A DNA stretch of 64,000 bases from Escherichia phage vB_EcoM-BECP11, in sequence record MW286157.1. One strand, 5' to 3'. Each line of letters opens with the position of its first letter. The first letter of the stretch is position 1. This document shows, piece by piece, positions 2 through 51,849 of the stretch. Position numbers and translations under genes: made by a program. The notes under the pieces were generated by a model that was not told where the DNA came from, made no database searches, and worked only from the letters and a program-made list of their open reading frames with translations.

Positions 2-1597
2 AATGTTACCATTAAAAATAATCAGGTGACAGTTGAAGATAACGGTCGCGGTATTCCACAAGCGATGGTTAAAACACCTACTGGTGAAGAAATTCCTGGT
101 CCTGTTGCTGCGTGGACTATTCCAAAAGCAGGTGGTAACTTTGGTGATGATAAAGAACGTGTCACCGGTGGTATGAATGGTGTTGGTTCTAGTTTAACTA
201 ACATTTTTTCTGTGATGTTTGTCGGTGAAACTGGCGATGGTCAAAATAATATTGTAGTTCGTTGTTCAAATGGCATGGAAAATAAATCATGGGAAACTAT
301 TCCAGGAAAATGGAAAGGAACTCGTGTTACTTTCATTCCTGATTTTATGTCATTTGAAACTAATGAGCTGTCCCAAGTTTATCTTGACATTACACTAGAT
401 CGTCTTCAGACACTTGCTGTTGTTTATCCTGATATTCAATTTACTTTTAATGGTAAAAAGGTTCAGGGCAATTTTAAGAAATATGCACGGCAGTATGATG
501 AACATGCTATTGTTCAAGAACAAGAAAATTGTTCTATTGCGGTTGGTCGTTCACCTGATGGTTTTCGTCAATTAACTTATGTGAATAACATTCACACTAA
601 GAATGGTGGCCATCACATTGACTGTGTTATGGATGATATTTGTGAAGACCTTATTCCACAAATCAAACGTAAGTTCAAAATTGATGTAACTAAAGCACGT
701 GTCAAAGAATGTTTGACTATCGTTATGTTTGTTCGTGATATGAAAAACATGCGATTTGATTCTCAAACTAAAGAACGACTTACTTCTCCTTTTGGTGAAA
801 TTCGTAGTCATATTCAACTTGATGCTAAAAAGATTTCACGCGCTATTCTAAATAATGAAGCAATTTTAATGCCGATTATTGAAGCTGCTTTAGCACGTAA
901 ATTAGCAGCAGAAAAAGCAGCAGAAACTAAAGCAGCTAAAAAGGCTTCTAAAGCTAAGGTTCATAAACATATCAAAGCGAATCTTTGCGGTAAAGATGCT
1001 GACACTACTCTTTTCTTGACTGAGGGTGATTCTGCTATCGGATATCTTATTGATGTTCGTGATAAAGAACTTCATGGTGGTTATCCATTGCGTGGTAAAG
1101 TTCTCAACAGTTGGGGTATGTCATATGCTGATATGCTTAAAAACAAAGAACTATTTGATATTTGCGCAATCACTGGATTAGTTCTTGGTGAAAAAGCTGA
1201 AAACTTGAATTATCATAATATTGCTATTATGACCGATGCTGACCATGATGGTTTAGGAAGCATTTATCCTTCTCTGCTCGGATTTTTTAGTAATTGGCCA
1301 GAACTGTTTGAACAAGGAAGAATTCGCTTTGTCAAAACTCCTGTAATCATCGCTCAGGTCGGTAAAAAACAAGAATGGTTTTATACAGTCGCTGAATATG
1401 AGAGTGCCAAAGATGCTCTACCTAAACATAGCATCCGTTATATTAAGGGACTTGGCTCTTTGGAAAAATCTGAATATCGTGAGATGATTCAAAACCCAGT
1501 ATATGATGTTGTTAAACTTCCTGAGAACTGGAAAGAGCTTTTTGAAATGCTCATGGGAGATAATGCTGACCTTCGTAAAGAATGGATGAGCCAGTAG
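2..1597 (+). CDS. 39: DNA topoisomerase II large subunit, C-terminal ~530 aa; 5' end lies outside window; gene-60-equivalent region fused in frame
   Basis: ORF open to window start; GHKL motif DNGRGIP and Toprim motif IAIMTDADHDGLGSIYPSLLGFF; C-terminus matches T4 gp60 as recalled. Confidence 0.9.
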   Translation, partial: NVTIKNNQVTVEDNGRGIPQAMVKTPTGEEIPGPVAAWTIPKAGGNFGDDKERVTGGMNGVGSSLTNIFSVMFVGETGDGQNNIVVRCSNGMENKSWETIPGKWKGTRVTFIPDFMSFETNELSQVYLDITLDRLQTLAVVYPDIQFTFNGKKVQGNFKKYARQYDEHAIVQEQENCSIAVGRSPDGFRQLTYVNNIHTKNGGHHIDCVMDDICEDLIPQIKRKFKIDVTKARVKECLTIVMFVRDMKNMRFDSQTKERLTSPFGEIRSHIQLDAKKISRAILNNEAILMPIIEAALARKLAAEKAAETKAAKKASKAKVHKHIKANLCGKDADTTLFLTEGDSAIGYLIDVRDKELHGGYPLRGKVLNSWGMSYADMLKNKELFDICAITGLVLGEKAENLNYHNIAIMTDADHDGLGSIYPSLLGFFSNWPELFEQGRIRFVKTPVIIAQVGKKQEWFYTVAEYESAKDALPKHSIRYIKGLGSLEKSEYREMIQNPVYDVVKLPENWKELFEMLMGDNADLRKEWMSQ

Positions 1598-1626
1598 TTT
1601 ACTTTACCACAAGGATGTGGTATAAT
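1597..1626 (+). promoter_or_regulatory. T4-type early promoter (GTTTAC, 18 bp, TATAAT) for rIIA.1/rIIA
   Basis: GTTTAC at 1597-1602 and TATAAT at 1621-1626, immediately after the gene 39 stop. Confidence 0.6.
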
Positions 1627-1651
1627 TAATTGGGCAAATGAGGATATTGGA

Positions 1652-1855
1652 ATGAAATCATATAAAGTAAATTTAGAACTTTTTGATAAAGCAGTTCATC
1701 GAGAATATAGAATCATTCAACGCTTTTTCGATATGGGAGAAGCCGAAGAATTTAAAAACCGCTTTAAAGATATTAGAGATAAAATTCAATCCGACACCGC
1801 AACTAAAGATGAACTACTAGAAGTTGCTGAAGTTATTAAGCGTAATATGAATTAA
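1652..1855 (+). CDS. hypothetical small protein (67 aa), in the position of T4 rIIA.1
   Basis: ORF with upstream GAGGA-like RBS, directly downstream of an early promoter; position between 39 and rIIA. Confidence 0.5.
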
Positions 1856-1865
1856 TGAGGAAATT

Positions 1866-4043
1866 ATGATTATCACCACTGAAAAAGAAACAATTCTTGG
1901 TAATGGTTCTAAATCAAAAGCATTTAGCATCACAGCATCTCCTAAAGTATTTAAAATTCTGTCATCTGATTTGTATACAAACAAAATTCGCGCAGTAGTC
2001 CGTGAATTGATTACTAACATGATTGATGCCCATGCACTCAATGGAAATCCTGAAAAATTTATCATTCAAGTTCCTGGACGTTTAGATCCACGATTTGTTT
2101 GCCGAGATTTTGGTCCGGGTATGAGTGATTTTGATATTCAAGGTGATGATAATTCTCCTGGTTTGTATAATTCATACTTCAGTTCATCTAAGGCTGAATC
2201 TAACGATTTCATTGGCGGATTTGGTTTAGGTTCTAAATCTCCGTTTAGTTATACTGATACATTTAGTATTACTTCGTATCATAAAGGTGAAATTCGTGGT
2301 TATGTAGCTTACATGGATGGCGATGGTCCACAAATTAAACCTACATTCGTGAAAGAAATGGGTCCAGATGATAAAACTGGTATTGAAATCGTAGTTCCAG
2401 TTGAAGAAAAAGACTTTAGAAACTTTGCTTATGAAGTTTCTTATATCATGCGACCGTTCAAAGATTTGGCTATCATTAATGGTCTTGACCGCGAAATTGA
2501 TTATTTTCCGGATTTTGATGACTATTACGGTGTAAATCCAGAAAGATACTGGCCAGATCGTGGTGGATTATATGCTATCTATGGCGGTATTGTATATCCT
2601 ATCGATGGCGTTATTAGAGAGCGTAACTGGCTAAGCATTCGCAATGAAGTGAATTACATTAAGTTTCCAATGGGTTCGCTGGATATTGCTCCATCACGCG
2701 AAGCTCTTTCATTAGATGATCGCACTCGTAAAAATATTATTGAACGAGTTAAAGAACTCAGTGAGAAAGCATTTAATGAAGATGTAAAACGATTTAAAGA
2801 ATCTACATCTCCTCGTCATACATATCGTGAATTGATGAAGATGGGGTATTCTGCTCGAGATTATATGATTAGTAATTCAGTCAAATTCACGACTAAAAAT
2901 CTGTCATATAAGAAGATGCAGAGCATGTTTGAACCTGACAGTAAGTTATGCAATGCAGGAGTTGTGTATGAAGTAAATCTTGACCCTCGACTGAAACGCA
3001 TTAAGCAAAGTCATGAAACTTCAGCCGTTGCATCAAGTTATCGTCTGTTTGGCATTAATACAACAAAAATTAATATTGTTATTGATAATATTAAAAATCG
3101 TGTTAATATTGTCCGTGGATTAGCACATGCGCTAGATGATAGTGAATTTAATAACACTTTAAATATTCATCACAATGAGCGTCTTCTGTTTATTAATCCG
3201 GAAGTAGAATCGCAGATTGATTTACTACCTGATATTATGGCAATGTTTGAAAGTGATGAAGTTAACATTCATTATTTGTCAGAAATTGAAGCTTTAGTTA
3301 AAAGCTATATTCCAAAGGTAGTTAAAAGTAAAGCTCCTCGTCCTAAAGCTGCTACAGCATTTAAGTTTGAAATTAAAGATGGGCGATGGGAAAAAGAGGA
3401 ACTATTTACACTTACGTCAGAAGCAGATGAAATTACTGGTTATGTAGCGTACATGCATCGTTCTGATATTTTCTCTATGGATGGTACTACATCGCTTTGT
3501 CATCCATCTATGAATATTTTGATTCGTATGGCTAATCTTATTGGCATTAATGAATTTTATGTTATTCGTCCGCTTTTACAGAAAAAGGTAAAAGAACTCG
3601 GTCAGTGCCAATGTATTTTTGAAGCTTTGCGTGATTTATATGTAGATGCTTTTGATGATGTAGATTATGATAAGTATGTAGGTTATTCAAGTTCAGCTCA
3701 ACGATATATTGATAAAATTATCAAGCATCCTGAATTAGATTTTATGATGAAGTACTTCAGTACAGATGAAGTTTCTGAAGAATATACACGACTCGCTAAT
3801 ATAGTTAGTTCATTGCGCGGTGTATATTTTAATGGTGGAAAAGATACCATCGGTCATGACATCTGGACAGTAACTAATCTTTTTGATGTATTATCAAATA
3901 ATGCTTCAAAAAACAGTGATAAAATGGTTGCTGAGTTTACCAAGAAATTCCGTATTGTTTCCGACTTCATCGGTTATCGCAGCTCTTTAAGCGATGATGA
4001 AGTCTCCCAAATCGCTAAAACTATGAAGGCCCTTGCGGCCTAA
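1866..4043 (+). CDS. rIIA: rIIA membrane-associated protein (725 aa)
   Basis: 725 aa, same length as T4 rIIA; GHKL-ATPase-like N-terminus; RBS GAGGAAATT before ATG; synteny 39-rIIA-rIIB. Confidence 0.9.
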
Positions 4044-4054
4044 TAAGGAAAATT

Positions 4055-4993
4055 ATGTACAATATTAAATGCCTGACCAAAAATGAACAAGCTGAAATTG
4101 TTAAACTGTATTCAAGCGGTAATTATACTCAGCAAGAATTGGCTGATTGGCAAGGTGTATCGGTTGATACAATCCGTCGTGTTTTGAAAAATGCTGAAGA
4201 AGCTAAACACTCTAAAATTACTATTAGCGGTGATATTACAGTTAAAGTTAATAGCGATGCAGTTATTGCTCCAGTTGCTAAATCTGACATTATTTGGAAT
4301 GCATCTAAAAAATTCATTTCGATTACTGTTGATGGTGTAACTTATAATGCAACACCTAATACTCATTCAAACTTCCAGGAAATTCTTAATCTGCTCGTAG
4401 CGGATAAGCTGGAAGAAGCAGCACAAAAAATTAATGTTCGCCGCGCTGTTGAAAAATATATTTCCGGCGATGTTCGAATTGAAGGTGGAAGCTTATTCTA
4501 TCAAAATATTGAATTGCGGTCTGGTTTGGTTGATCGTATTCTTGATTCGATGGAAAAAGGCGAAAACTTTGAATTTTATTTTCCGTTCTTGGAAAATCTG
4601 CTGGAAAATCCAAGCCAGAAAGCGGTATCTCGACTCTTTGATTTCTTGGTAGCAAACGATATTGAAATTACAGAAGATGGTTACTTCTATGCTTGGAAAG
4701 TAGTTCGTAGCAATTACTTTGATTGTCACTCAAACACTTTTGATAACAGTCCTGGTAAAGTAGTTAAAATGCCGCGTACTCGCGTAAATGACGATGATAC
4801 ACAAACTTGTTCTCGCGGTTTGCATGTATGTTCTAAATCTTATATTCGTCACTTCGGTGGTTCAACTAGTCGAGTTGTAAAAGTTAAAGTTCATCCACGT
4901 GATGTAGTATCAATTCCGATTGATTACAACGATGCTAAAATGCGTACCTGCCAATACGAAGTAGTTGAAGACGTTACTGAACAATTTAAATAA
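4055..4993 (+). CDS. rIIB: rIIB protein (312 aa)
   Basis: 312 aa, same length as T4 rIIB; immediately follows rIIA; RBS AAGGAAAAT. Confidence 0.9.
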   Translation: MYNIKCLTKNEQAEIVKLYSSGNYTQQELADWQGVSVDTIRRVLKNAEEAKHSKITISGDITVKVNSDAVIAPVAKSDIIWNASKKFISITVDGVTYNATPNTHSNFQEILNLLVADKLEEAAQKINVRRAVEKYISGDVRIEGGSLFYQNIELRSGLVDRILDSMEKGENFEFYFPFLENLLENPSQKAVSRLFDFLVANDIEITEDGYFYAWKVVRSNYFDCHSNTFDNSPGKVVKMPRTRVNDDDTQTCSRGLHVCSKSYIRHFGGSTSRVVKVKVHPRDVVSIPIDYNDAKMRTCQYEVVEDVTEQFK

Positions 4994-5007
4994 GGGCTTC
5001 GGCCCTT
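4992..5007 (+). promoter_or_regulatory. intercistronic RNA hairpin (UUCG tetraloop) after rIIB
   Basis: AAGGGC-TTCG-GCCCTT. Confidence 0.55.
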
Positions 5008-5021
5008 AACTAAGGAAAATT

Positions 5022-5216
5022 ATGTTAGGTTATCAAGCACGAGTAAAAGAAGAATACGATCAATTAATGCTCAAAATTAATGCACTGAGCAAATTTTTAG
5101 AAAGCACAAAGTTTCTAACAGTTAGTGCAGTTGAGCAAGAATTACTGCTTTCACAGTTCATCTCAATGAAATCTTATGCTGAATGTCTAGAGAAAAGAAT
5201 TGCACAATTCAAATAA
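5022..5216 (+). CDS. hypothetical protein (64 aa)
   Basis: ORF with RBS AAGGAAAAT, bracketed by two GGGCTTCGGCCC hairpins. Confidence 0.4.
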   Translation: MLGYQARVKEEYDQLMLKINALSKFLESTKFLTVSAVEQELLLSQFISMKSYAECLEKRIAQFK

Positions 5217-5218
5217 AT

Positions 5219-5240
5219 AAGGGCTTCGGCCCTTTTGTTT
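5219..5240 (+). terminator. hairpin with U-rich tail (terminator-like)
   Basis: AAGGGC-TTCG-GCCCTT followed by TTGTTTT; same hairpin sequence as 4992-5007. Confidence 0.5.
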
Positions 5241-5252
5241 TAAGGAAAAATT

Positions 5253-5582
5253 ATGATTTATTGTATGAATATCGGCGATTCCGACATAAAAGAGATTAAA
5301 CTGCACGGAAATCATCACGCTAATATTGTGTACTGTAATAAATTTGAGTTTGGTCACGAAAAACTTGGGTTTCTTTACTGTAATGATGTTATAGTCATGG
5401 ATAAAAAGGAGCTCGATGAACTTGACCTCGAGTCTTTAGATGAAAATGACCGAATTTATTATGGTACTCTTAAAGTATATAACGCTTATCTCGGTGGTAA
5501 AAAGGAAAGTCTAAATGCAGAAAACGAATCCGGGTTTACAGAGACTATTTCAGATTCCGACATTTACCCTATCGAACAGTGA
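5253..5582 (+). CDS. hypothetical protein (109 aa)
   Basis: ORF with RBS AAGGAAAAAT; 3' end overlaps the next ORF if that starts at 5515. Confidence 0.4.
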   Translation: MIYCMNIGDSDIKEIKLHGNHHANIVYCNKFEFGHEKLGFLYCNDVIVMDKKELDELDLESLDENDRIYYGTLKVYNAYLGGKKESLNAENESGFTETISDSDIYPIEQ

Positions 5583-6072
5583 TTTGACTAGTGAAATGAA
5601 GGTCAAAATTGCTGATACTGCGAGATACTCTTTAAAACAAAATCCAAACCAGGATAAGGCTGAGGTCATCGAAAGATGTCGTATCGCAGTGTATGCTGAG
5701 TATGTTGTAGCAGATTGGTTAAGTGGGTATGTTAACAAAGGTCAAGAAGACGTCGATGATCCGTATACATATGCATGGGATGTTTTAGCACATCCAAAAT
5801 ACTGCGGGCTTCGGGTAGAAGTTAAAACACACCAAACTGACTCTCGATGGATTTCAGTAACGACAGGACACAGCGGAGAGTATCCATACGGTTCTGGAAT
5901 AAATCTAGGGCCCATTCTAAATCATCAAGTCGCTGACTGTATAATTATATTCAACACTAAAGAAATTCATCCAGGTGTCATCCAGTACACTCCGAAGTTC
6001 ATCGGTGACAGAGAAGACCTTCGTAAGGTTGTAAGAAAAAGCAACTACAACGGATGGTATCTTTCCATTTAA
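5515..6072 (+). CDS. denB: putative endonuclease IV (DenB-like); start uncertain (alternative ATG at 5596)
   Basis: 185-aa ORF, the length I recall for T4 EndoIV, in the expected position between rIIB and ndd; assignment by length and synteny only. Confidence 0.4.
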   Translation: MQKTNPGLQRLFQIPTFTLSNSDLTSEMKVKIADTARYSLKQNPNQDKAEVIERCRIAVYAEYVVADWLSGYVNKGQEDVDDPYTYAWDVLAHPKYCGLRVEVKTHQTDSRWISVTTGHSGEYPYGSGINLGPILNHQVADCIIIFNTKEIHPGVIQYTPKFIGDREDLRKVVRKSNYNGWYLSI

Positions 6073-6091
6073 AAAATTTTTTCACAAAACG

Positions 6092-6121
6092 GTTTACATA
6101 CCACAAGGACCGTGGTACTAT
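6092..6121 (+). promoter_or_regulatory. T4-type early promoter
   Basis: GTTTAC 6092-6097, 18-bp spacer, TGGTACTAT extended -10; AT-rich UP-like tract upstream. Confidence 0.6.
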
Positions 6122-6152
6122 TACCCTATCAACTACGGAGGAGCGGAAAATG
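6111..6152 (+). repeat. promoter-leader repeat, copy 1
   Basis: CGTGGTACTATTACCCTATCAACTACGGAGGA...AAAATG, near-identical to 6617-6658; partial third copy at 27161-27180. Confidence 0.7.
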
Positions 6153-6413
6153 AAATTTAAATTTTATTACGCTAAACATAAAATAACTGATGAGTTTGTG
6201 TCAGTTGAATATTCTAGCGACGATGAAGGTATGATTTATACTCGCTTGGGACTATCGCATTGGGAGTCTGATCAGCCTTATTTTTCAACTCCTGAAGAAA
6301 TTACACGCTTAGTTAGTGGTCATATGAATGACCATTGGAATGTAATTCTTTCAGATAGTCTTAAAGCGGCTATTAATAGTAATGAAATGAAAATCGCTGA
6401 GATTGAGCTGTGA
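6150..6413 (+). CDS. hypothetical protein (87 aa)
   Basis: ATG 8 nt after GGAGGA, downstream of early promoter 6092-6121; the longer upstream ORF start reads through the promoter and is unlikely. Confidence 0.5.
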   Translation: MKFKFYYAKHKITDEFVSVEYSSDDEGMIYTRLGLSHWESDQPYFSTPEEITRLVSGHMNDHWNVILSDSLKAAINSNEMKIAEIEL

Positions 6414-6492
6414 GTTCACTATGGTGGTGTTTTGTTTGGTTAATTAGTATTCCAGTAATTTGTTTAACATTTACTTTTGTAATGAGGTTATT

Positions 6493-6591
6493 ATGAAAAT
6501 TTTGAATTCTGTACTTATTGCTTGCGCGTGGTGGGTTGCACAGGTTTCAGCGGTAGTAGTTGGTATTCACATTTATTACGAATATTTTTAA
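6493..6591 (+). CDS. predicted small hydrophobic peptide (32 aa)
   Basis: RBS GAGG then ATG; MKILNSVLIACAWWVAQVSAVVVGIHIYYEYF has one predicted TM helix. Confidence 0.35.
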   Translation: MKILNSVLIACAWWVAQVSAVVVGIHIYYEYF

Positions 6592-6597
6592 AAAGTT

Positions 6598-6627
6598 GTT
6601 TACAAGACTGTTCTTCCGTGGTACTAT
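6598..6627 (+). promoter_or_regulatory. T4-type early promoter (repeat copy)
   Basis: GTTTAC 6598-6603, 18-bp spacer, TGGTACTAT; the -10 and leader are identical to the copy at 6111-6152. Confidence 0.6.
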
Positions 6628-6658
6628 TACCCTATCAACTACGGAGGAACAGAAAATG
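6617..6658 (+). repeat. promoter-leader repeat, copy 2
   Basis: 32 of 32 nt identical to copy 1, then 2 mismatches up to the ATG. Confidence 0.7.
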
Positions 6659-6769
6659 AAAAAGATTGTTAAAGCTATATGGAATGTAGTTATAATACTA
6701 ATAGTTTTGAGTATATTCCCAATCGTTTTAATGATTGATGTATTAAACGCTTACTTTGGATTTATGTGA
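6656..6769 (+). CDS. predicted small membrane peptide (37 aa)
   Basis: GGAGGA RBS after early promoter 6598-6627; hydrophobic core VVIILIVLSIFPIVLMI. Confidence 0.45.
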   Translation: MKKIVKAIWNVVIILIVLSIFPIVLMIDVLNAYFGFM

Positions 6770-6776
6770 GGAAAAT

Positions 6777-6974
6777 ATGAAGCGTAAACGCAGTGCTTTT
6801 ACATTTATTGAATGGTTTTTCGATAATATTTTTCCGGCTTTATTCATTTTTATGCTGATTTTTGCCTTAGGTTCAGTTGTAGTTGGAATCTATTTGATGA
6901 CAGTAGTCGGAATTGATATTCATCAAAATGGTTTAAAATCTGTGGTTGAAACAATTTGGAATGGTGTAAAATGA
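6777..6974 (+). CDS. predicted small membrane protein (65 aa)
   Basis: RBS GAGGAAAATATG; hydrophobic stretch FPALFIFMLIFALGSVVVGIYLMTVVGI. Confidence 0.5.
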   Translation: MKRKRSAFTFIEWFFDNIFPALFIFMLIFALGSVVVGIYLMTVVGIDIHQNGLKSVVETIWNGVK

Positions 6975-7081
6975 TGAATTTGTTGAGCGGTTGGTTTTAT
7001 ATTCTTATGTTTTACATTGGTGCAAATTTTCCATATTGGATGGGATGGTCAACAACTGCATTCGGATTTTATACTCCTTGA
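6971..7081 (+). CDS. predicted small membrane peptide (36 aa)
   Basis: ATGA overlap with upstream stop; aromatic-rich hydrophobic sequence GWFYILMFYIGANFPYWMGW. Confidence 0.35.
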   Translation: MMNLLSGWFYILMFYIGANFPYWMGWSTTAFGFYTP

Positions 7082-7089
7082 GGTGAATT

Positions 7090-7305
7090 ATGAAAAGTTT
7101 TAAAGATGTAAAAGTTGGTGAAATTTTCTGTTTAGATAACGGTGATCAGTTAATTCGTATTTCACCTCTTAAGAGCACTAGCGAGAAACTGACAGTTAAT
7201 GCTACTTTAGCAAATAACAGTAATGAACGTTTCTGTATTGAAAATGATACTGAAACTTATACTGTAGAAGAGTTTTGGGAATTGAGCGTCGACTGCGACG
7301 ATTAA
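7090..7305 (+). CDS. hypothetical protein (71 aa)
   Basis: RBS GAGGTGAATT before ATG; followed by hairpin 7313-7332. Confidence 0.5.
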   Translation: MKSFKDVKVGEIFCLDNGDQLIRISPLKSTSEKLTVNATLANNSNERFCIENDTETYTVEEFWELSVDCDD

Positions 7306-7312
7306 TTTAATG

Positions 7313-7332
7313 GCCGCGTATTCATGCGGCCT
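7313..7332 (+). promoter_or_regulatory. intercistronic RNA hairpin upstream of ndd
   Basis: GGCCGC-gtattcat-GCGGCC. Confidence 0.5.
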
Positions 7333-7364
7333 TGGAGTAGAAAATAATTTTAGAGGAAATTAAT

Positions 7365-45348: not shown

Positions 45349-45617
45349 TGTTTGTCGTTCACACTATTTATGAAAATGAAGGTAATACTACACGTGATTA
45401 CGGTCACGTAAATCAATTTTTTAGATGCAATCCAGAATTCCGAGCTCAAAAAGACGAACGAATTTTTAAAAAATGTGTAGAGCAAGGTTTCATTTACGTC
45501 AAGCACTGGATGCAAGGAAATAAAGTTAGAACCACGTACCACAGGTCTTTGACTGAGCTTAATGATGAATTGATTTATAATAGAGCTGTAAACCAAACTC
45601 TAAAGGATGAACAATGA
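45348..45617 (+). CDS. hypothetical protein (89 aa)
   Basis: TAATG overlap upstream; ATGA overlap with gene 30. Confidence 0.45.
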   Translation: MFVVHTIYENEGNTTRDYGHVNQFFRCNPEFRAQKDERIFKKCVEQGFIYVKHWMQGNKVRTTYHRSLTELNDELIYNRAVNQTLKDEQ

Positions 45618-47077
45618 TTCTTAAAATTCTGAATGAAATAGCATCTATTGGTTCAACTAAGCAAAAGCAAGCAATTCTTGAAAAGAATAAAGATAATGAA
45701 TTGCTCAAACGAGTATATCGTCTGACTTATTCTCGTGGGTTACAGTATTATATCAAGAAATGGCCTAAACCTGGTATTGCTACCCAGAGTTTTGGAATGT
45801 TGACTCTTACCGATATGCTTGACTTCATTGAATTCACATTAGCTACTCGGAAATTGACTGGAAATGCGGCAATTGAGGAATTAACTGGATATATTACTGA
45901 CGGTAAAAAAGATGATGTTGAAGTTTTGCGTCGGGTGATGATGCGAGACCTTGAATGCGGTGCATCAGTATCTATTGCAAACAAAGTTTGGCCAGGTTTA
46001 ATTCCTGAACAACCTCAAATGCTGGCAAGTTCTTATGATGAAAAAGGCATTAATAAGAATATCAAATTTCCAGCCTTTGCCCAATTAAAAGCTGATGGAG
46101 CTCGGTGCTTTGCTGAAGTCAGAGGTGATGAATTAGATGATGTTCGTCTTTTATCACGAGCTGGTAATGAATATCTAGGATTAGATCTTCTCAAGGAAGA
46201 GTTAATCAAAATGACTGCAGAAGCTCGCCAGATTCATCCAGAAGGTGTGTTAATTGATGGCGAATTGGTATACCATGAGCAAGTTGAAAAGGAGCCAGAA
46301 GGCCTAGATTTTCTTTTTGATGCTTATCCTGAAATTAGTAAAGCTAAAGAATTCGCCGAAGTAGCTGAATCACGTACTACTTCTAATGGAATCGCTAATA
46401 AATCTTTAAAGGGAACTATTTCAGAAAAAGAAGCTCAATGCATGAAGTTTCAGGTCTGGGATTATGTTCCGTTGGTAGAAATATACGGTCTTCCGGCGTT
46501 TCGTTTAAAATATGATGTACGTTTTTCTAAACTAGAACAAATGACATCAGGCTATGATAAAGTAATTTTAATTGAAAACCAAGTAGTAAATAACCTAGAT
46601 GAAGCTAAGGTAATTTACAAAAAGTATATTGACCAAGGTCTTGAAGGTATTATTCTCAAAAATATCGATGGATTATGGGAAAATGCTCGTTCAAAAAATC
46701 TTTATAAATTTAAAGAAGTAATTGATGTTGATTTAAAAATTGTAGGAATTTATCCTCACCGTAAAGACCCTACTAAAGCAGGTGGTTTCATTCTTGAATC
46801 AGAGTGTGGAAAAATTAAAGTAAATGCTGGTTCAGGCTTAAAAGATAAAGCCGGCGTAAAATCACATGAACTTGACCGTACTCGCATTATGGAAAACCAA
46901 AATTATTATATTGGAAAAATTCTAGAGTGCGAATGCAACGGCTGGGTAAAATTAGATGGACGTACTGATTACGTTAAGCTATTTCTTCCAATTGCAATTC
47001 GTTTACGTGAAGATAAAACTAAAGCTAATACGTTCGAAGATGTATTTGGCGATTTTCATGAGGTAACTGGTTTATGA
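45614..47077 (+). CDS. 30: ATP-dependent DNA ligase (487 aa)
   Basis: adenylation motif KADGAR (FAQLKADGARCFAEV); near-identical to T4 DNA ligase as recalled, same length. Confidence 0.95.
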   Translation: MILKILNEIASIGSTKQKQAILEKNKDNELLKRVYRLTYSRGLQYYIKKWPKPGIATQSFGMLTLTDMLDFIEFTLATRKLTGNAAIEELTGYITDGKKDDVEVLRRVMMRDLECGASVSIANKVWPGLIPEQPQMLASSYDEKGINKNIKFPAFAQLKADGARCFAEVRGDELDDVRLLSRAGNEYLGLDLLKEELIKMTAEARQIHPEGVLIDGELVYHEQVEKEPEGLDFLFDAYPEISKAKEFAEVAESRTTSNGIANKSLKGTISEKEAQCMKFQVWDYVPLVEIYGLPAFRLKYDVRFSKLEQMTSGYDKVILIENQVVNNLDEAKVIYKKYIDQGLEGIILKNIDGLWENARSKNLYKFKEVIDVDLKIVGIYPHRKDPTKAGGFILESECGKIKVNAGSGLKDKAGVKSHELDRTRIMENQNYYIGKILECECNGWVKLDGRTDYVKLFLPIAIRLREDKTKANTFEDVFGDFHEVTGL

Positions 47078-47259
47078 AAGCTTACTTAGAAACAATTGTC
47101 GTGGCTCAAAAAGAAGGTGGAGATGTTTCCACTGCGGTATCGCAGGTTATTCTTGAATTCCCAGATAAACTAGCATATGATGAATTCACGGAAAGATTTG
47201 ATCCATATGAAAAAGGTCCAAAGTTTGAAGTATATCGTACTCTTTTAGCTCTCTATTAA
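47074..47259 (+). CDS. hypothetical protein (61 aa)
   Basis: ATGA overlap with ligase stop; followed by hairpin 47263-47278. Confidence 0.4.
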   Translation: MKAYLETIVVAQKEGGDVSTAVSQVILEFPDKLAYDEFTERFDPYEKGPKFEVYRTLLALY

Positions 47260-47262
47260 TTA

Positions 47263-47278
47263 AAGGCCTTCGGGCCTT
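47263..47278 (+). promoter_or_regulatory. intercistronic RNA hairpin upstream of alt
   Basis: AAGGCC-TTCG-GGCCTT. Confidence 0.5.
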
Positions 47279-47315
47279 TAATTTTATAAATAGAATAAAC
47301 ACTAGAGAGGATAAC

Positions 47316-49409
47316 ATGGAACTTATTACAGAATTATTTGACGAAGATACTACTCTTCCGATTACAAACTTAAATCCAAAGAAGAAAATACCACAAATTT
47401 TTTCAGTTCATGTTGATGATGCAATTGAACAACCAGGCTTTCGTTTATGTACCTATACATCTGGAGGTGATACTAATCGCGATTTAAAGATGGGCGATAA
47501 AATGATGCATATTGTTCCTTTTACATTAACTGCTAAAGGCTCAATTGCTAAATTAAAAGGTCTTGGTCCAAGCCCAATTAATTATATCAATTCAGTTTTT
47601 ACTGTTGCAATGCAAACGATGCGTCAATATAAAATTGATGCCTGCATGCTTCGTATTCTTAAGTCTAAAACTGCTGGCCAAGCTCGACAAATTCAAGTTA
47701 TTGCTGATAGACTTATCCGTAGTCGTTCAGGTGGCAGATACGTCCTTCTTAAGGAACTCTGGGATTACGATAAAAAGTATGCATATATTCTTATACATCG
47801 CAAAAATGTATCATTAGAAGACATTCCAGGAGTTCCAGAAATTAGCACTGAACTCTTTACTAAAGTTGAATCGAAGGTCGGTGATGTTTATATCAATAAA
47901 GATACTGGAGCTCAAGTAACTAAAAATGAAGCAATTGCAGCATCTATTGCACAAGAAAATGATAAACGTTCTGACCAAGCTGTAATCGTTAAAGTTAAAA
48001 TTTCCCGTAGAGCAATTGCACAAAGTCAGTCATTGGAATCTTCTAGATTTGAAAGTGAATTATTCCAGAAGTATGAATCTACAGCAGCCAATTTTAATAA
48101 ACCAGCTACTGCACCTTTAATTCCCGAAGCAGAAGAAATGAAAATTGGAATTAATTCATTAGCTTCTAAAACAAAGGCAGCAAAAATTATTGCTGAAGGA
48201 ACGGCAGATGAACTTCACTATGATTATAAATTCTTTCCAATGAGTCAAGTCGGTGAAGTTTCAGAAAAAATTAAAGAAGTAATTTTTAATGCAATTAAAA
48301 ATGAACCAACTACTTCAATAAAATGTTTAGAGAAATACGCAGCAGCTGTAAATCAATTCTTTGAAGATTATAAAGATAAATGGCTTGCTAATCATAATAA
48401 AAATCGTAAAGGACAACCAGATGAAGTCTGGGAAGAAATAACTAAAAATTCCTGGAACGCAGCAAAAACTAAATTCCTCAAACGAATGATTTACAGTTTT
48501 TCTGGAATTGGTGCTGGTCCAATGATTGATATTACTATTGCCCGCGATGGTTCTAAATATACTCCATCACAAAAGCGTGGCATTAGAGAATATTGCGGTT
48601 CAGGATATACTGACATCAATAATCTTCTTTTAGGTCGTTACAATCCAGAACGATACGATGTAATGAGTGAAAAAGAAATTGAATCTGCTATAAATAACTT
48701 AGATTCAGCTTTTGAAAATGGTGACCGTATACCAGAAGGCATTACAGTTTATCGTGCTCAAAGTATGACTGCTCCTATATATGAAGCGTTAGTTAAAAAT
48801 AAAGTGTTCTACTTCAGAAATTTTGTATCTACTTCTTTAACTCCTATCATTTTTGGACGTTTTGGAATCACACATGCTGGTATTGGTCTTTTAGAACCAG
48901 AAGCTCGCAATGAATTAACAGTTGATAAAAATGAAGAAGGAATAACTATTAATCCAAACGAAATAAGAGCGTATAAAGAAAATCCTGAATATGTTAAAGT
49001 TCAAATAGGATGGGCAATTGATGGAGCTCATAAAGTTAATGTTGTATATCCAGGAAGTCTCGGAATAGCAACAGAAGCTGAAGTTATTCTACCACGCGGA
49101 TTGATGGTCAAGGTTAATAAAATAACTGATGCTTCTAATAATGACGGAACAACATCTAATAATACAAAACTCATTCAAGCTGAAGTTATGACCACGGAAG
49201 AGCTCACCGAATCGGTAATCTATGATGGAGACCATTTAATGGAAACTGGTGAATTGGTTGCAATGACAGGTGATATTGAAATAGAAGACAGAGTTGACTT
49301 TGCATCATTTGTTTCATCAAATATTAAACAGAAAGTAGAATCATCTCTTGGAATTATTGCGTCTTGCATAGATATTACAAACATGCCTTACAAGTTCGTT
49401 CAAGGATAA
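47316..49409 (+). CDS. alt: Alt, capsid-packaged mono-ADP-ribosyltransferase (697 aa)
   Basis: N-terminus MELITELFDEDTTLPITNLNPKKKIPQIFSVHVDD matches T4 Alt as recalled; ART motifs YRAQ, FVSTSL, EAEVILPRG. Confidence 0.9.
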   Translation: MELITELFDEDTTLPITNLNPKKKIPQIFSVHVDDAIEQPGFRLCTYTSGGDTNRDLKMGDKMMHIVPFTLTAKGSIAKLKGLGPSPINYINSVFTVAMQTMRQYKIDACMLRILKSKTAGQARQIQVIADRLIRSRSGGRYVLLKELWDYDKKYAYILIHRKNVSLEDIPGVPEISTELFTKVESKVGDVYINKDTGAQVTKNEAIAASIAQENDKRSDQAVIVKVKISRRAIAQSQSLESSRFESELFQKYESTAANFNKPATAPLIPEAEEMKIGINSLASKTKAAKIIAEGTADELHYDYKFFPMSQVGEVSEKIKEVIFNAIKNEPTTSIKCLEKYAAAVNQFFEDYKDKWLANHNKNRKGQPDEVWEEITKNSWNAAKTKFLKRMIYSFSGIGAGPMIDITIARDGSKYTPSQKRGIREYCGSGYTDINNLLLGRYNPERYDVMSEKEIESAINNLDSAFENGDRIPEGITVYRAQSMTAPIYEALVKNKVFYFRNFVSTSLTPIIFGRFGITHAGIGLLEPEARNELTVDKNEEGITINPNEIRAYKENPEYVKVQIGWAIDGAHKVNVVYPGSLGIATEAEVILPRGLMVKVNKITDASNNDGTTSNNTKLIQAEVMTTEELTESVIYDGDHLMETGELVAMTGDIEIEDRVDFASFVSSNIKQKVESSLGIIASCIDITNMPYKFVQG

Positions 49410-49412
49410 ATC

Positions 49413-51470
49413 ATGGAACTTATTACAGAATTATTTGACGGCGCTTCGGCGCCGGTTGTTAACTTAAATCCTAAGCATAAAATACCTCAAATTTTTGCTA
49501 TTCAAGCAGGTGAAGAAAGCGTGCTTCCTGGATTTAGATTTTGTACATACACCTCTGGCGGTGATACGAATAAAAACGTTAAGCCAGGCGACAAAATGAT
49601 GCATATCGTAATGATAGGTGTTAATGAGAAACTATCATTAGTTAAGCTTAAAAACTTGGGTGGAAATCCAATTGGCGTCATTAATGCTGTTTTTGATACT
49701 GCTCTTCAAACAATGAAGCAGTATAAAATTGATGCATGCCTATTCCGCGTACTAAAAAGTAAAACAAATGGCGCAGCTCGTCAAATGCAAGTTATTGCTG
49801 ACCGTTTAGTACGTACTAAAGGAGCAGGTCGATATGTTCTTTTAAAGGAAATCTGGGATTATGATAAAAAGTACGCATATATTATGGTTTACCGTAAAAA
49901 TGCCAATTTAGAAGACATTCCAGGTGTACCTCCTATTTCAACCGAGTTATTCACAAAAGTTGAATCAAAGGTTGGTGATGTTTATGTAGACGTTAAAACA
50001 GGTAATGCTGTTCCTAAAGCTGTTGCTGTTGCTGCTTCTATTGCTTTAGAAAATGATAAGCGCACGGATCAAGCTGTTATTCAGAAAACTAAAATTAGTC
50101 GTCGATTAGCAGCACAAGCTCAATATTCTACTGTTGATGCTTCACTTCAGGGTGATAGCTTCGCTGCTAAGAAATATCAAGAGTTTGAATCTAAAGTTCC
50201 GGTATATAAAGCAGAAGGACCAATGAACTCTGGCGTTATTCAGGTTGGTTCAAACTTTAGCAAAGGAGCTATCGGTGGTATGAGAAGTGCTTCTCGTTTT
50301 AAATCTAGTGATTATGAACTCGAAAGCTTCCGAAATCATATTGCATTGGCCCATGCACGTTTACGCGATCCATCTATCAAGCTGCAGAGCGATATAACAT
50401 ATCAAGGTTCTCAAGAATATTTAAAGAATAAAGAATTCTTTGATTATAAAACTGATAAAATTTTAAGCGATCTTGCTGACATTAATATTTCTAATAGCTT
50501 TGATGTTATTAAGAAAATTGTCAATGATTTAGTTAAAGGTTCTAAAGCTACACCAGATGAAAAGACAGCTATTATTCAATTTGTAATGAACGGAATTTAT
50601 AAATTAATTGATGAATCTGCTGCTCAGGCATATGAATATGCAAGCACTGAAGTAACTCCAAAAGGATTAACTCAGGCTGAGTCTGATGTAATTGAAGATT
50701 ATTGCGCAGATTCATATGTTGAAATGAACTCGTTCCTTCTAGGTAAACCTGATTCTACCCGTGAAGAATATATGGAACGAGCTATTAAACATATTGAGAC
50801 GCTGGATTCTGCATTTTCTAAAGGTTCAGTTCTTCCTCCAGGAACTACTCTTTATCGTGGGCAAGAAGTTACCTTTAAAACTTTACGTCATAATATAGAA
50901 AATAAAATGTTCTATTTCAAGAACTTTGTATCTACTTCACTCAAGCCAAATATCTTCGGTGAATATGGTAAAAATTATATGGCCTTAGATGATTCCGGAG
51001 CAGTATTTTCTGGTGAAGGAGAAGGTTCAGTTGATGCTGAAGATTTAATGCATATGGGTAGTCATTCTACATATGCGAATGAAGACGCTGAAACTAATGT
51101 AGGTATGGTAATTAAAGGAGCTGAACGAGTTAAAGTTATCGTTCCAGGTCATTTATCAGGATTTCCATCCGAAGCTGAAGTTATTTTGCCGCGTGGAATT
51201 TTACTGAAGATTAATAAAGTAAGTACGTACATGATGAAAGAAACTGCTTATAACAAGTATCTAATCGAAGGTACAATCGTTCCTCCTTCTGAACAATTAG
51301 AAGAATCAGTATATGATGGCGACCATCTGATGGAAACTGGTGAAGTTCGTCCAATGGCTGGATTTAATCAATTCCTTGTAGAAGAATCAAAAGAAGAGGA
51401 AAACGAAGTTTCTCAAATCTTAGCTTCTTTGGTTAACATCAACGGAATGTCTAAAAAGTTCAAAATGTAG
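49413..51470 (+). CDS. second Alt-like ADP-ribosyltransferase, tandem paralogue (685 aa)
   Basis: MELITELFDGASAPVVNLNPKHKIPQIF...; retains YRGQ, FVSTSL and EAEVILPRG motifs; central region diverges from the first copy. Confidence 0.8.
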   Translation: MELITELFDGASAPVVNLNPKHKIPQIFAIQAGEESVLPGFRFCTYTSGGDTNKNVKPGDKMMHIVMIGVNEKLSLVKLKNLGGNPIGVINAVFDTALQTMKQYKIDACLFRVLKSKTNGAARQMQVIADRLVRTKGAGRYVLLKEIWDYDKKYAYIMVYRKNANLEDIPGVPPISTELFTKVESKVGDVYVDVKTGNAVPKAVAVAASIALENDKRTDQAVIQKTKISRRLAAQAQYSTVDASLQGDSFAAKKYQEFESKVPVYKAEGPMNSGVIQVGSNFSKGAIGGMRSASRFKSSDYELESFRNHIALAHARLRDPSIKLQSDITYQGSQEYLKNKEFFDYKTDKILSDLADINISNSFDVIKKIVNDLVKGSKATPDEKTAIIQFVMNGIYKLIDESAAQAYEYASTEVTPKGLTQAESDVIEDYCADSYVEMNSFLLGKPDSTREEYMERAIKHIETLDSAFSKGSVLPPGTTLYRGQEVTFKTLRHNIENKMFYFKNFVSTSLKPNIFGEYGKNYMALDDSGAVFSGEGEGSVDAEDLMHMGSHSTYANEDAETNVGMVIKGAERVKVIVPGHLSGFPSEAEVILPRGILLKINKVSTYMMKETAYNKYLIEGTIVPPSEQLEESVYDGDHLMETGEVRPMAGFNQFLVEESKEEENEVSQILASLVNINGMSKKFKM

Positions 51471-51499
51471 TTTACAAGTCCCTCGTATTGTGTTATAGT
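51470..51499 (+). promoter_or_regulatory. T4-type early promoter (repeat of the alc promoter-leader)
   Basis: GTTTAC 51470-51475, 18-bp spacer, TGTTATAGT; about 54 bp near-identical to 35650-35703. Confidence 0.55.
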
Positions 51500-51530: not shown

Positions 51531-51821
51531 ATGAAATCTTCTTTGCGCTTTTTAGGTCAAGAACTCGTCGTTGAAGGCGTTATTCCCGCTGATAACGCTT
51601 TCAATGAAGCAGTTTATGATGAATTTATTAAAATTTTCGGAACCGATAAAAAGTTTGGAATTTTTCCTTCTGAAAATTTTTCAAAGCCAGAACAGACTGA
51701 AAGTATTTTCCAAGGTGTAGTAACAGGTAAATTTGAGTCAGAAGCTCCGGTAAAAATTGAGGTTTATATTGAAGAAACCTCTGTTGCTTCAGTTGCTGCT
51801 TTTATTTCATTCCGTAAATAA
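51531..51821 (+). CDS. hypothetical protein (96 aa), in the position of T4 alt.-1
   Basis: RBS GAGGAACACAAA after early promoter 51470-51499; followed by hairpin 51828-51845. Confidence 0.5.
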   Translation: MKSSLRFLGQELVVEGVIPADNAFNEAVYDEFIKIFGTDKKFGIFPSENFSKPEQTESIFQGVVTGKFESEAPVKIEVYIEETSVASVAAFISFRK

Positions 51822-51827
51822 AAATAT

Positions 51828-51845
51828 GGGGACCTTTCGGTCCCC
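51828..51845. promoter_or_regulatory. hairpin between convergent genes (ORF 51531-51821 and gene 54)
   Basis: GGGGACC-TTTC-GGTCCCC. Confidence 0.5.
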
Positions 51846-51849
51846 ATTG

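Follow-up and report, generated by a model that had tools for sequence, protein, structure and literature searches.

Tandem full-length alt paralogues in Escherichia phage vB_EcoM-BECP11 and their relation to T4 alt.-1 and alt.-2

Two full-length alt genes head to tail

Alt of phage T4 is an internal head protein and an NAD+:arginine mono-ADP-ribosyltransferase, which modifies RNA polymerase alpha at Arg265 as well as further proteins of the host. Here we analyse a stretch of 64,000 nucleotides (nt) from Escherichia phage vB_EcoM-BECP11 (MW286157.1; hereafter the window), in which two alt genes follow each other on the plus strand: AltA, the T4 alt orthologue (697 amino acids, aa; 47316..49409) and, after a gap of 3 nt, AltB, a second alt paralogue (685 aa; 49413..51470) that alignment identifies as the intact counterpart of T4 alt.-1 plus alt.-2. 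The coordinates of the two open reading frames (ORFs) agree exactly with an earlier note, made from the letters of this DNA alone, that had described two full-length head-to-tail genes of these very lengths. That both proteins start with MELITELFD and keep motifs of ADP-ribosyltransferases (ARTs), as the note had also claimed, is borne out in AltA and AltB alike, with YRAQ or YRGQ, FVSTSL and EAEVILPRG all being found. At the DNA level, the first 28 nt of AltA (47316-47343) and AltB (49413-49440) are identical while synonymous sites elsewhere are saturated, which suggests either nucleotide-level constraint on the translation start region or very local conversion.

AltA and AltB align with each other from end to end (42% identity, E = 7e-161), so that the kinship of AltB with alt extends over its full length and is not, as the earlier note had left conceivable, confined to the N-terminus. 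Identity is unevenly spread, amounting to 65% over residues 1-244, 20% over residues ~245-420, 32% in the ART domain (~420-610) and 33% in the C-terminal tail. The strong divergence that had been assigned to the central 300 residues is therefore real, albeit imprecisely bounded: everything after residue ~245 has diverged, and the helical stretch of ~175 residues most of all.

Homology to T4 Alt was found to cover both proteins completely and to take in the N-terminal domain that is absent from ModA and ModB, and each of them matches positions 2-674 of 674 in phrog_802 ('Alt-like RNA polymerase ADP-ribosyltransferase'). The Pfam family PF03496 (ADPrib_exo_Tox) matches AltA (9.6e-38) as well as AltB (1.8e-20), PF26846 (Tevenvirinae_ADPRT) and PF03496 are recorded on AltB homologues, and no model was matched in a search of NCBIfam. 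At the motif level, the R-S-ExE set of arginine-specific mono-ARTs is present in both copies, with R480, S505-T-S507 and E587/E589 in AltA as the counterparts of the catalytic arginine R482 (50856-50858), the STS motif S507-T-S509 (50931-50939) and the ExE glutamates E587 (51171-51173) and E589 (51177-51179) in AltB, all read on the plus strand. Five of these AltB residues (R482, S507, S509, E587, E589) are invariant in 26 homologues. The segment from STS to ExE carries indels between AltA and AltB, and the ARTT loops are lineage-specific: GSLGIATEAE in AltA, GGSLAPSNEME in T4 Alt and GHLSGFPSEAE in AltB. Mutation of the ExE motif abolishes the activity of T4 Alt in a mutant called E577A (PMC11404850); by our own count in NP_049811, the ExE glutamates stand at E574 and E576, one position away from the published name.

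An AlphaFold model of AltB (pLDDT 75) has four parts, among them an alpha/beta N-domain (residues ~12-225), a confident helical domain (~240-440) and an ART domain (~450-628), and is of low confidence at its ends (residues 1-11 and 629-685). The ART domain has the expected fold with the NAD-binding core of the R-S-E clade (C3 / VIP2 / iota-like). A GNAT acetyltransferase fold, considered for the N-terminal domain, was rejected because the isolated N-domain gave no specific top-ranking structural match to GNAT enzymes. When PDB sequences were searched with phmmer, no solved Alt structure was found and the only matches, weak ones, were to binary-toxin ARTs.

T4 alt.-1 and alt.-2 as remnants of AltB

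The T4 reference carries alt (682 aa; NP_049811; 5455-7503 of the T4 stretch examined), alt.-1 (61 aa; NP_049810), alt.-2 (67 aa; NP_049809) and alt.-3, and the T4 record itself traces alt.-1/alt.-2 to an old duplication that took in the first part of alt. Our alignments point to a different origin. T4 alt.-1 is 95% identical to AltB residues 1-56 and alt.-2 is 98% identical to AltB residues 62-116, as opposed to only ~56-62% identity of the two with AltA and T4 Alt, which marks them as remnants of AltB; small PHROGs that match alt.-1/alt.-2 score ~1e-40 on AltB. Judged by these identities, the T4 remnants derive from a full-length paralogue and not from a duplicate of alt's 'first part'. As for alt.-3, which had been put forward for the same comparison, it has no relation to alt, its name notwithstanding.

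In a comparison of the DNA, T4 and the window are collinear apart from a single block missing from T4, a 1,699-bp deletion between 9-bp direct repeats, CTAAAAAGT, that shifted the frame and left one copy of the repeat in T4. In the window, both copies are present on the plus strand, the left one (49752..49760) at the left and the right one (51451..51459) at the right deletion end. Further upstream, a run of five A (49572..49576, plus strand) is shortened to four in T4 and ACG-C40, the -1 frameshift that splits alt.-1 from alt.-2. The T4-type junction recurs in ~91 phage records, among which are those of natural isolates (RB55, RB59, ACG-C40, HY03 and SG1). The AltB remnants (3225-3660 in the ACG-C40 and SG1 stretches examined, 5040-5465 in that of T4) differ in their secondary lesions: SG1 has a nonsense codon at position 6 (E6) and no frameshift, T4 has the frameshift only and ACG-C40 has both. 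Since a pseudogene in decay is recognised by just such a pattern, one deletion and then secondary lesions acquired independently, T4 alt.-1 and alt.-2 are most likely pseudogene fragments rather than genes. As remnants of a second copy, they also indicate that having two copies is the ancestral condition and the fuller of the two. To that extent, the belief stated in the earlier note, that T4 has one alt gene plus short downstream ORFs and that an intact second copy would be the fuller state, has held.

Selection on AltB

Six equal-length AltB orthologues (that of the window and five others) are all intact, and while they differ by up to 0.25 at synonymous sites (dS), nonsynonymous divergence (dN) is only ~0.01. 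Their dN/dS ratio lies between 0.03 and 0.08 in every domain, and between 0.03 and 0.05 in the ART domain, and the last 78 codons show zero nonsynonymous change; for AltA the ratio is 0.03-0.06. Neither of the features by which a pseudogene would be recognised, a broken frame or relaxed selection, is thus found in AltB, and by the measure of these ratios it is a working gene under strong purifying selection comparable to that on AltA. That AltB decayed in the lineage of T4, gathering nonsense and frameshift lesions once the deletion had occurred, might be taken to mean that it is a non-functional duplicate heading for loss in other phages, too. With its ORF intact, with synonymous change outrunning nonsynonymous change as it does among the six orthologues and with the segment kept in ~400 records, we find this scarcely credible, and the selection result effectively refutes it.

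The same data bear on whether AltB, Alt being described as a core protein as well as an enzyme (PMC11404850), could be mainly a structural component of the prohead core whose enzymatic activity is vestigial. This, to our minds, is highly improbable: R, STS and ExE would hardly be invariant in 26 homologues, nor would the ART domain be held at so low a dN/dS, and T4 builds heads without AltB.

Predicted processing by the prohead protease

Mass spectrometry has mapped the gp21 cuts in T4 Alt to ITE-6 and LTE-619, whereby 6 N-terminal and 63 C-terminal residues are taken off and a mature protein of 68.2 kDa is left (PMC5694885), a size that we could reproduce from sequence. AltA and AltB both begin with a predicted N-terminal propeptide, MELITE, to be cut by gp21 after E6 (47316..47333 and 49413..49430, plus strand) at a site equal to ITE-6 of T4 Alt. 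At the other end, AltA is predicted to lose a propeptide of 65 aa that begins SVIYDGDHLMETGE (49212..49406, plus strand) through cleavage after LTE-632, in the same context as T4 LTE-619, and AltB one of 54 aa that begins SVYDGDHLMETGE (51306..51467, plus strand) through cleavage after LEE-631, where the motif is conserved. The mature proteins would then measure 70.1 kDa (AltA) and 69.1 kDa (AltB), and the predicted cut sites of AltB coincide with the borders of the ordered part of its model. P1 glutamates E6 and E631 of AltB are invariant in 26 homologues, both gp21 motifs are also kept in five Dhakavirus paralogues, and behind the C-terminal cut every paralogue of both genera continues with S/N-V/A-(V/I)-YDGDxLMETGE. 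Taken together, the processing sites suggest that AltB passes through the prohead, for which they are good, if indirect, evidence.

The motif behind the cut, S-V-(I)-Y-D-G-D-x-L-M-E-T-G-E (49212-49253 in AltA; 51306-51344 in AltB), occurs in eight out of eight paralogues from the two genera, and its Y-D-G-D, E, G and E do not vary in any of 26 homologues. It lies in the piece that is discarded, and may be a core-binding or protease-docking element.

The earlier note had spoken of capsid-targeting N-termini. What stands is that the ITE-6 site is identical in both proteins; a targeting role of the 6-residue propeptide, however, has been demonstrated for IPIII and not for Alt. Those who mapped the sites name targeting, tethering and activity control as possible roles of the propeptides (PMC5694885).

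A literature search for virion proteomics or enzymology of AltB and its orthologues found neither, and brought up only a single-copy Alt homologue in virions of Morganella phage MP1. Given that it thus returned no direct evidence for AltB in virions, and that the other ARTs of T4, ModA and ModB, stay out of virions, AltB might, like these two, be an active ART which is not packaged and acts late in the producing cell. We regard such a scenario as quite improbable, as AltB has the whole Alt architecture down to the N-terminal domain, of which ModA and ModB are devoid, keeps both gp21 motifs with their invariant P1 glutamates, shows no nonsynonymous change in its C-terminal propeptide and is located in the late-transcribed alt slot beside baseplate genes.

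Age of the pair and exchange of alleles

Tandem alt arrays are found in the same slot of Dhakavirus genomes, with three alt genes in MX01 and two in CLB_P2. The MX01 genes (694, 681 and 707 aa; 1096-7356 of the stretch examined) are separated by 3-nt gaps; the first copy falls with AltA (68%), the third with AltB (52%, with the C-terminus KFKM in common), and the middle copy forms a third lineage that has 38-39% identity to AltA/AltB and ~50% to the flanking Dhakavirus copies. Because MX01 copies pair with AltA and AltB, the split between A and B is older than both genera. Synonymous sites between AltA and AltB are saturated throughout (dS ~1-2.3), and dN is 0.29 in the N-domain versus 0.65-0.97 elsewhere. 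Recent gene conversion as the cause of the N-domain similarity could be ruled out, dS being saturated there as well (1.4), so that low dN reflects stronger constraint on this domain rather than recent conversion.

AltA alleles and AltB states occur in each of their four combinations: AltB is intact next to a 697-aa AltA (window, T2, T6) or a 682-aa AltA (JK08), and deleted next to a 697-aa AltA (SG1) or a 682-aa AltA (T4, ACG-C40). AltA itself is a sharp mosaic when compared with T4 Alt, 100% identical over residues 1-244, 31% in the central part, 59% in the ART domain and 90% in the C-tail. Bodies of the window type reach at least 90% identity in 318 phage records, a third subtype (80-90%) is found in 34, and the T4 type stands at ~47%. 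Mosaic and subtypes together argue that the first copy, too, has exchangeable alleles of its effector part.

Exchange between the copies is suggested by metagenomic A::B hybrids, in which the only alt gene between alt.1 and alt.-3 joins an AltA-type 5' part to an AltB-type rest. Two lie on contigs with normal flanks (a 65-kb Logan contig and a 110-kb k99 contig), where the hybrid genes span 4001-6055, with the switch at ~nt 550, and 3501-5561 of the stretches examined; among all the hybrids there are at least four different breakpoints, all inside the N-domain region. As AltA and AltB in the window have no exact 31-mer in common, the hybrids are probably real products of unequal recombination; this, the differing breakpoints and the long contigs with normal flanks make assembly chimeras an unlikely source. 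Two further A::B hybrids sit on contigs that stop right after the gene and are ambiguous. Natural A::B fusions of this sort speak for an N-terminal module that is interchangeable.

Loss of either body raises the question of whether AltB, though packaged and active, is redundant with AltA and hits the same targets for the sake of dosage or backup. T4-type phages have lost the AltB body, A::B hybrids have kept the AltB body only, and the catalytic residues of both copies are identical. Even so, we think redundancy rather unlikely, since both copies have been kept at a dN/dS of ~0.04, in hundreds of genomes and since before Tequatrovirus and Dhakavirus split, at 20-32% identity outside the N-domain and with ARTT loops specific to each lineage; simple redundancy seldom lasts so long.

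Expression signals and neighbouring genes

Right after the alt.1 stop, a GC-rich, terminator-like hairpin with a UUCG loop (47258..47283, plus strand; -14.4 kcal/mol, z = -3.4) precedes AltA. Although it is absent from the list of our consensus terminator scan, a conserved terminator upstream of alt has been reported by Nolan 2006 (PMC1524935). It is followed by a T4 late-promoter box, TATAAATA (47285..47292, plus strand), 24 nt upstream of the AltA ATG, and by the AltA Shine-Dalgarno sequence GAGAGGA (47305..47311, plus strand). AltB has its own Shine-Dalgarno sequence, AAGGA (49402..49406, plus strand), within the last AltA codons and just ahead of the AltA stop (49407-49409), both sequences being read directly, and no late-promoter box was found between AltA and AltB. 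The 3-nt gap and the positions of the boxes suggest a single late transcript and coupled translation of AltA and AltB. Beyond AltB, an early-type promoter-like site, (G)TTTACA-17-TATAGT with a TG (51471..51499, plus strand), lies ahead of alt.-3 and is kept in T4, and the terminator scan placed a bidirectional intrinsic terminator (51826..51847) between alt.-3 and the converging gene 54.

The upstream neighbours are DNA ligase gene 30 (45614..47077, plus strand) and, next to it, alt.1 (61 aa, Pfam Phage_blade; 47074..47259, plus strand), so that the order 30 / alt.1 / alt is that of T4. Downstream follows alt.-3 (96 aa, DUF5498; 51531..51821, plus strand), 97% identical to T4 Alt.-3, of which C-terminal extension mutants evade defence by CmdTAC (PMC11618068). 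Genes 54, 48 and 29, which come next, are encoded on the opposite strand. Over a region of 4.9 kb, the locus is 99.7% identical to Escherichia phage vB_EcoM-UFV05/06 (Tequatrovirus).

Distribution and prior reports

The AltB segment missing from T4 occurs in 401 phage records with an identity of no less than 90%, in nearly every case 95-100%, and 356 records cover at least 80% of the whole two-gene query in one piece. In T2 as in T6, Alt has 697 aa and is accompanied by a second gene for 685 aa, which the T6 record labels 'apparent insertion in alt.-2; also similar to alt', and in many GenBank records two genes are already annotated as 'Alt-like RNA polymerase ADP-ribosyltransferase' or as alt_1/alt_2. 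In print, Nolan et al. 2006 counted alt.-1/alt.-2 as duplications paralogous to alt and mentioned that phage 44RR has a duplicate of full length (PMC1524935), and a 2026 paper on phage 6phi13 reports two Alt-like paralogues of 43.29% identity for which diverged targets are proposed (PMC13600099). With such records and papers at hand, both the finding and its interpretation are already public. The two-copy arrangement is the majority state of Tequatrovirus and already known; the hint in the earlier note that it might be noteworthy has not survived, the arrangement being common, annotated in GenBank and discussed in print.

A proposed pair of injected enzymes with partly different substrates

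How the pair might work can be sketched as follows. AltA and AltB would be transcribed late from the TATAAATA box, with AltB translationally coupled via the 3-nt gap, and the pro-enzymes (~76-78 kDa) would enter the prohead core, where gp21 would trim 6 N-terminal (ITE|L) and 54-65 C-terminal residues (LxE|SV(I)YDGD...). Once mature (~69-70 kDa), the enzymes would remain in the head, be injected along with the DNA and use NAD+ for mono-ADP-ribosylation of arginines in host proteins. In such a scheme, the conserved N-terminal domain (65% identity) may be a common module for packaging and ejection, and the diverged helical domain, ART loops and ARTT loop may give AltB a substrate spectrum partly unlike that of AltA.

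On balance, then, our preferred reading, in which we place reasonable though far from full confidence, is that AltA and AltB are two ancient tandem Alt paralogues, both packaged, processed, injected and active, and that the substrates of AltB are at least partly different. The suggestion of the earlier note, two injected enzymes with different host targets, is consistent with our data. Different targets are favoured by the low identity in the helical (20%) and ART (32%) domains, by the indels between STS and ExE, by the lineage-specific ARTT loops and by the long retention of both copies under purifying selection.

Several points weigh against it. Packaging, processing, injection and activity of AltB are all inferred, different targets are argued from sequence divergence alone, and a targeting role of Alt propeptides is unproven even in T4. 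The count of late-promoter motifs in the window is not above chance, so that for the TATAAATA box position alone argues for function. Loss of AltB in the T4 lineage (~91 records) implies that it is dispensable on at least some hosts, and since either catalytic body can be lost in nature, partial redundancy is allowed.

More tentatively, and with somewhat less than even confidence, we envisage that AltB acts on host proteins left alone by Alt, which may belong to a defence or stress system instead of being RNA polymerase, and that N-domain plus propeptides make up a generic 'pack-and-eject' cassette to which recombination joins one effector body or another. The idea of swappable effectors draws on the mosaic of AltA alleles, on natural A::B hybrids and on the arrays of one to three copies. 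If it were true, most wild relatives of T4, T2 and T6 among them, would deliver an effector that T4 itself does without, and some of the ways in which T4 differs from T2/T6 in its sensitivity to host defence could stem from this. Either way, T4, the reference for injected host-reprogramming enzymes, is a reduced case at the alt locus, and a second Alt-type enzyme, strongly conserved in most Tequatroviruses, is apparently uncharacterised. What we add are the exact path of decay in T4, selection on AltB as strong as that on AltA, predicted AltB processing sites and the A::B fusions. These additions are modest and leave current understanding unchanged.

Comparison with known systems

AltA resembles T4 Alt as its orthologue (70.7% overall, 100% over residues 1-244 and 90% in the C-tail), sits in the same slot after alt.1 and has unchanged ITE-6 and LTE cleavage contexts; it differs in the central region (31%) and the ART domain (59%), where it carries another allele, and in being 15 residues longer. 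AltB has the four-part architecture, catalytic residues and processing motifs of T4 Alt, yet only 41% identity overall and ~10-38% outside the N-domain, and unlike AltB, T4 alt.-1/alt.-2 are fragments left by the -1 frameshift and the 1,699-bp deletion. From the second alt genes of T2, T6, RB68, UFV-AREG1, wV7, 6phi13/SHFML-11 and ~400 Tequatrovirus records, which are AltB (685 aa, same slot, 95-100%), we see no material difference, and the window is a further instance of them. Tandem arrays in other Tevenvirinae (MX01; the 44RR duplicate) share the slot, the 3-nt gaps and the processing motifs seen here, although MX01, unlike the window, has a third lineage between its AltA-type and AltB-type copies. 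Further afield, Alt proteins are 14-26% identical to C3-like and binary-toxin ARTs of the R-S-E type (Vis, C3bot, Certhrax, CDTa, iota Ia, VIP2, SpvB), to which they add an N-terminal domain (PF26846), a helical domain and two propeptides removed by protease; and delivery of Alt is by ejection from the phage head instead of through a toxin B component.

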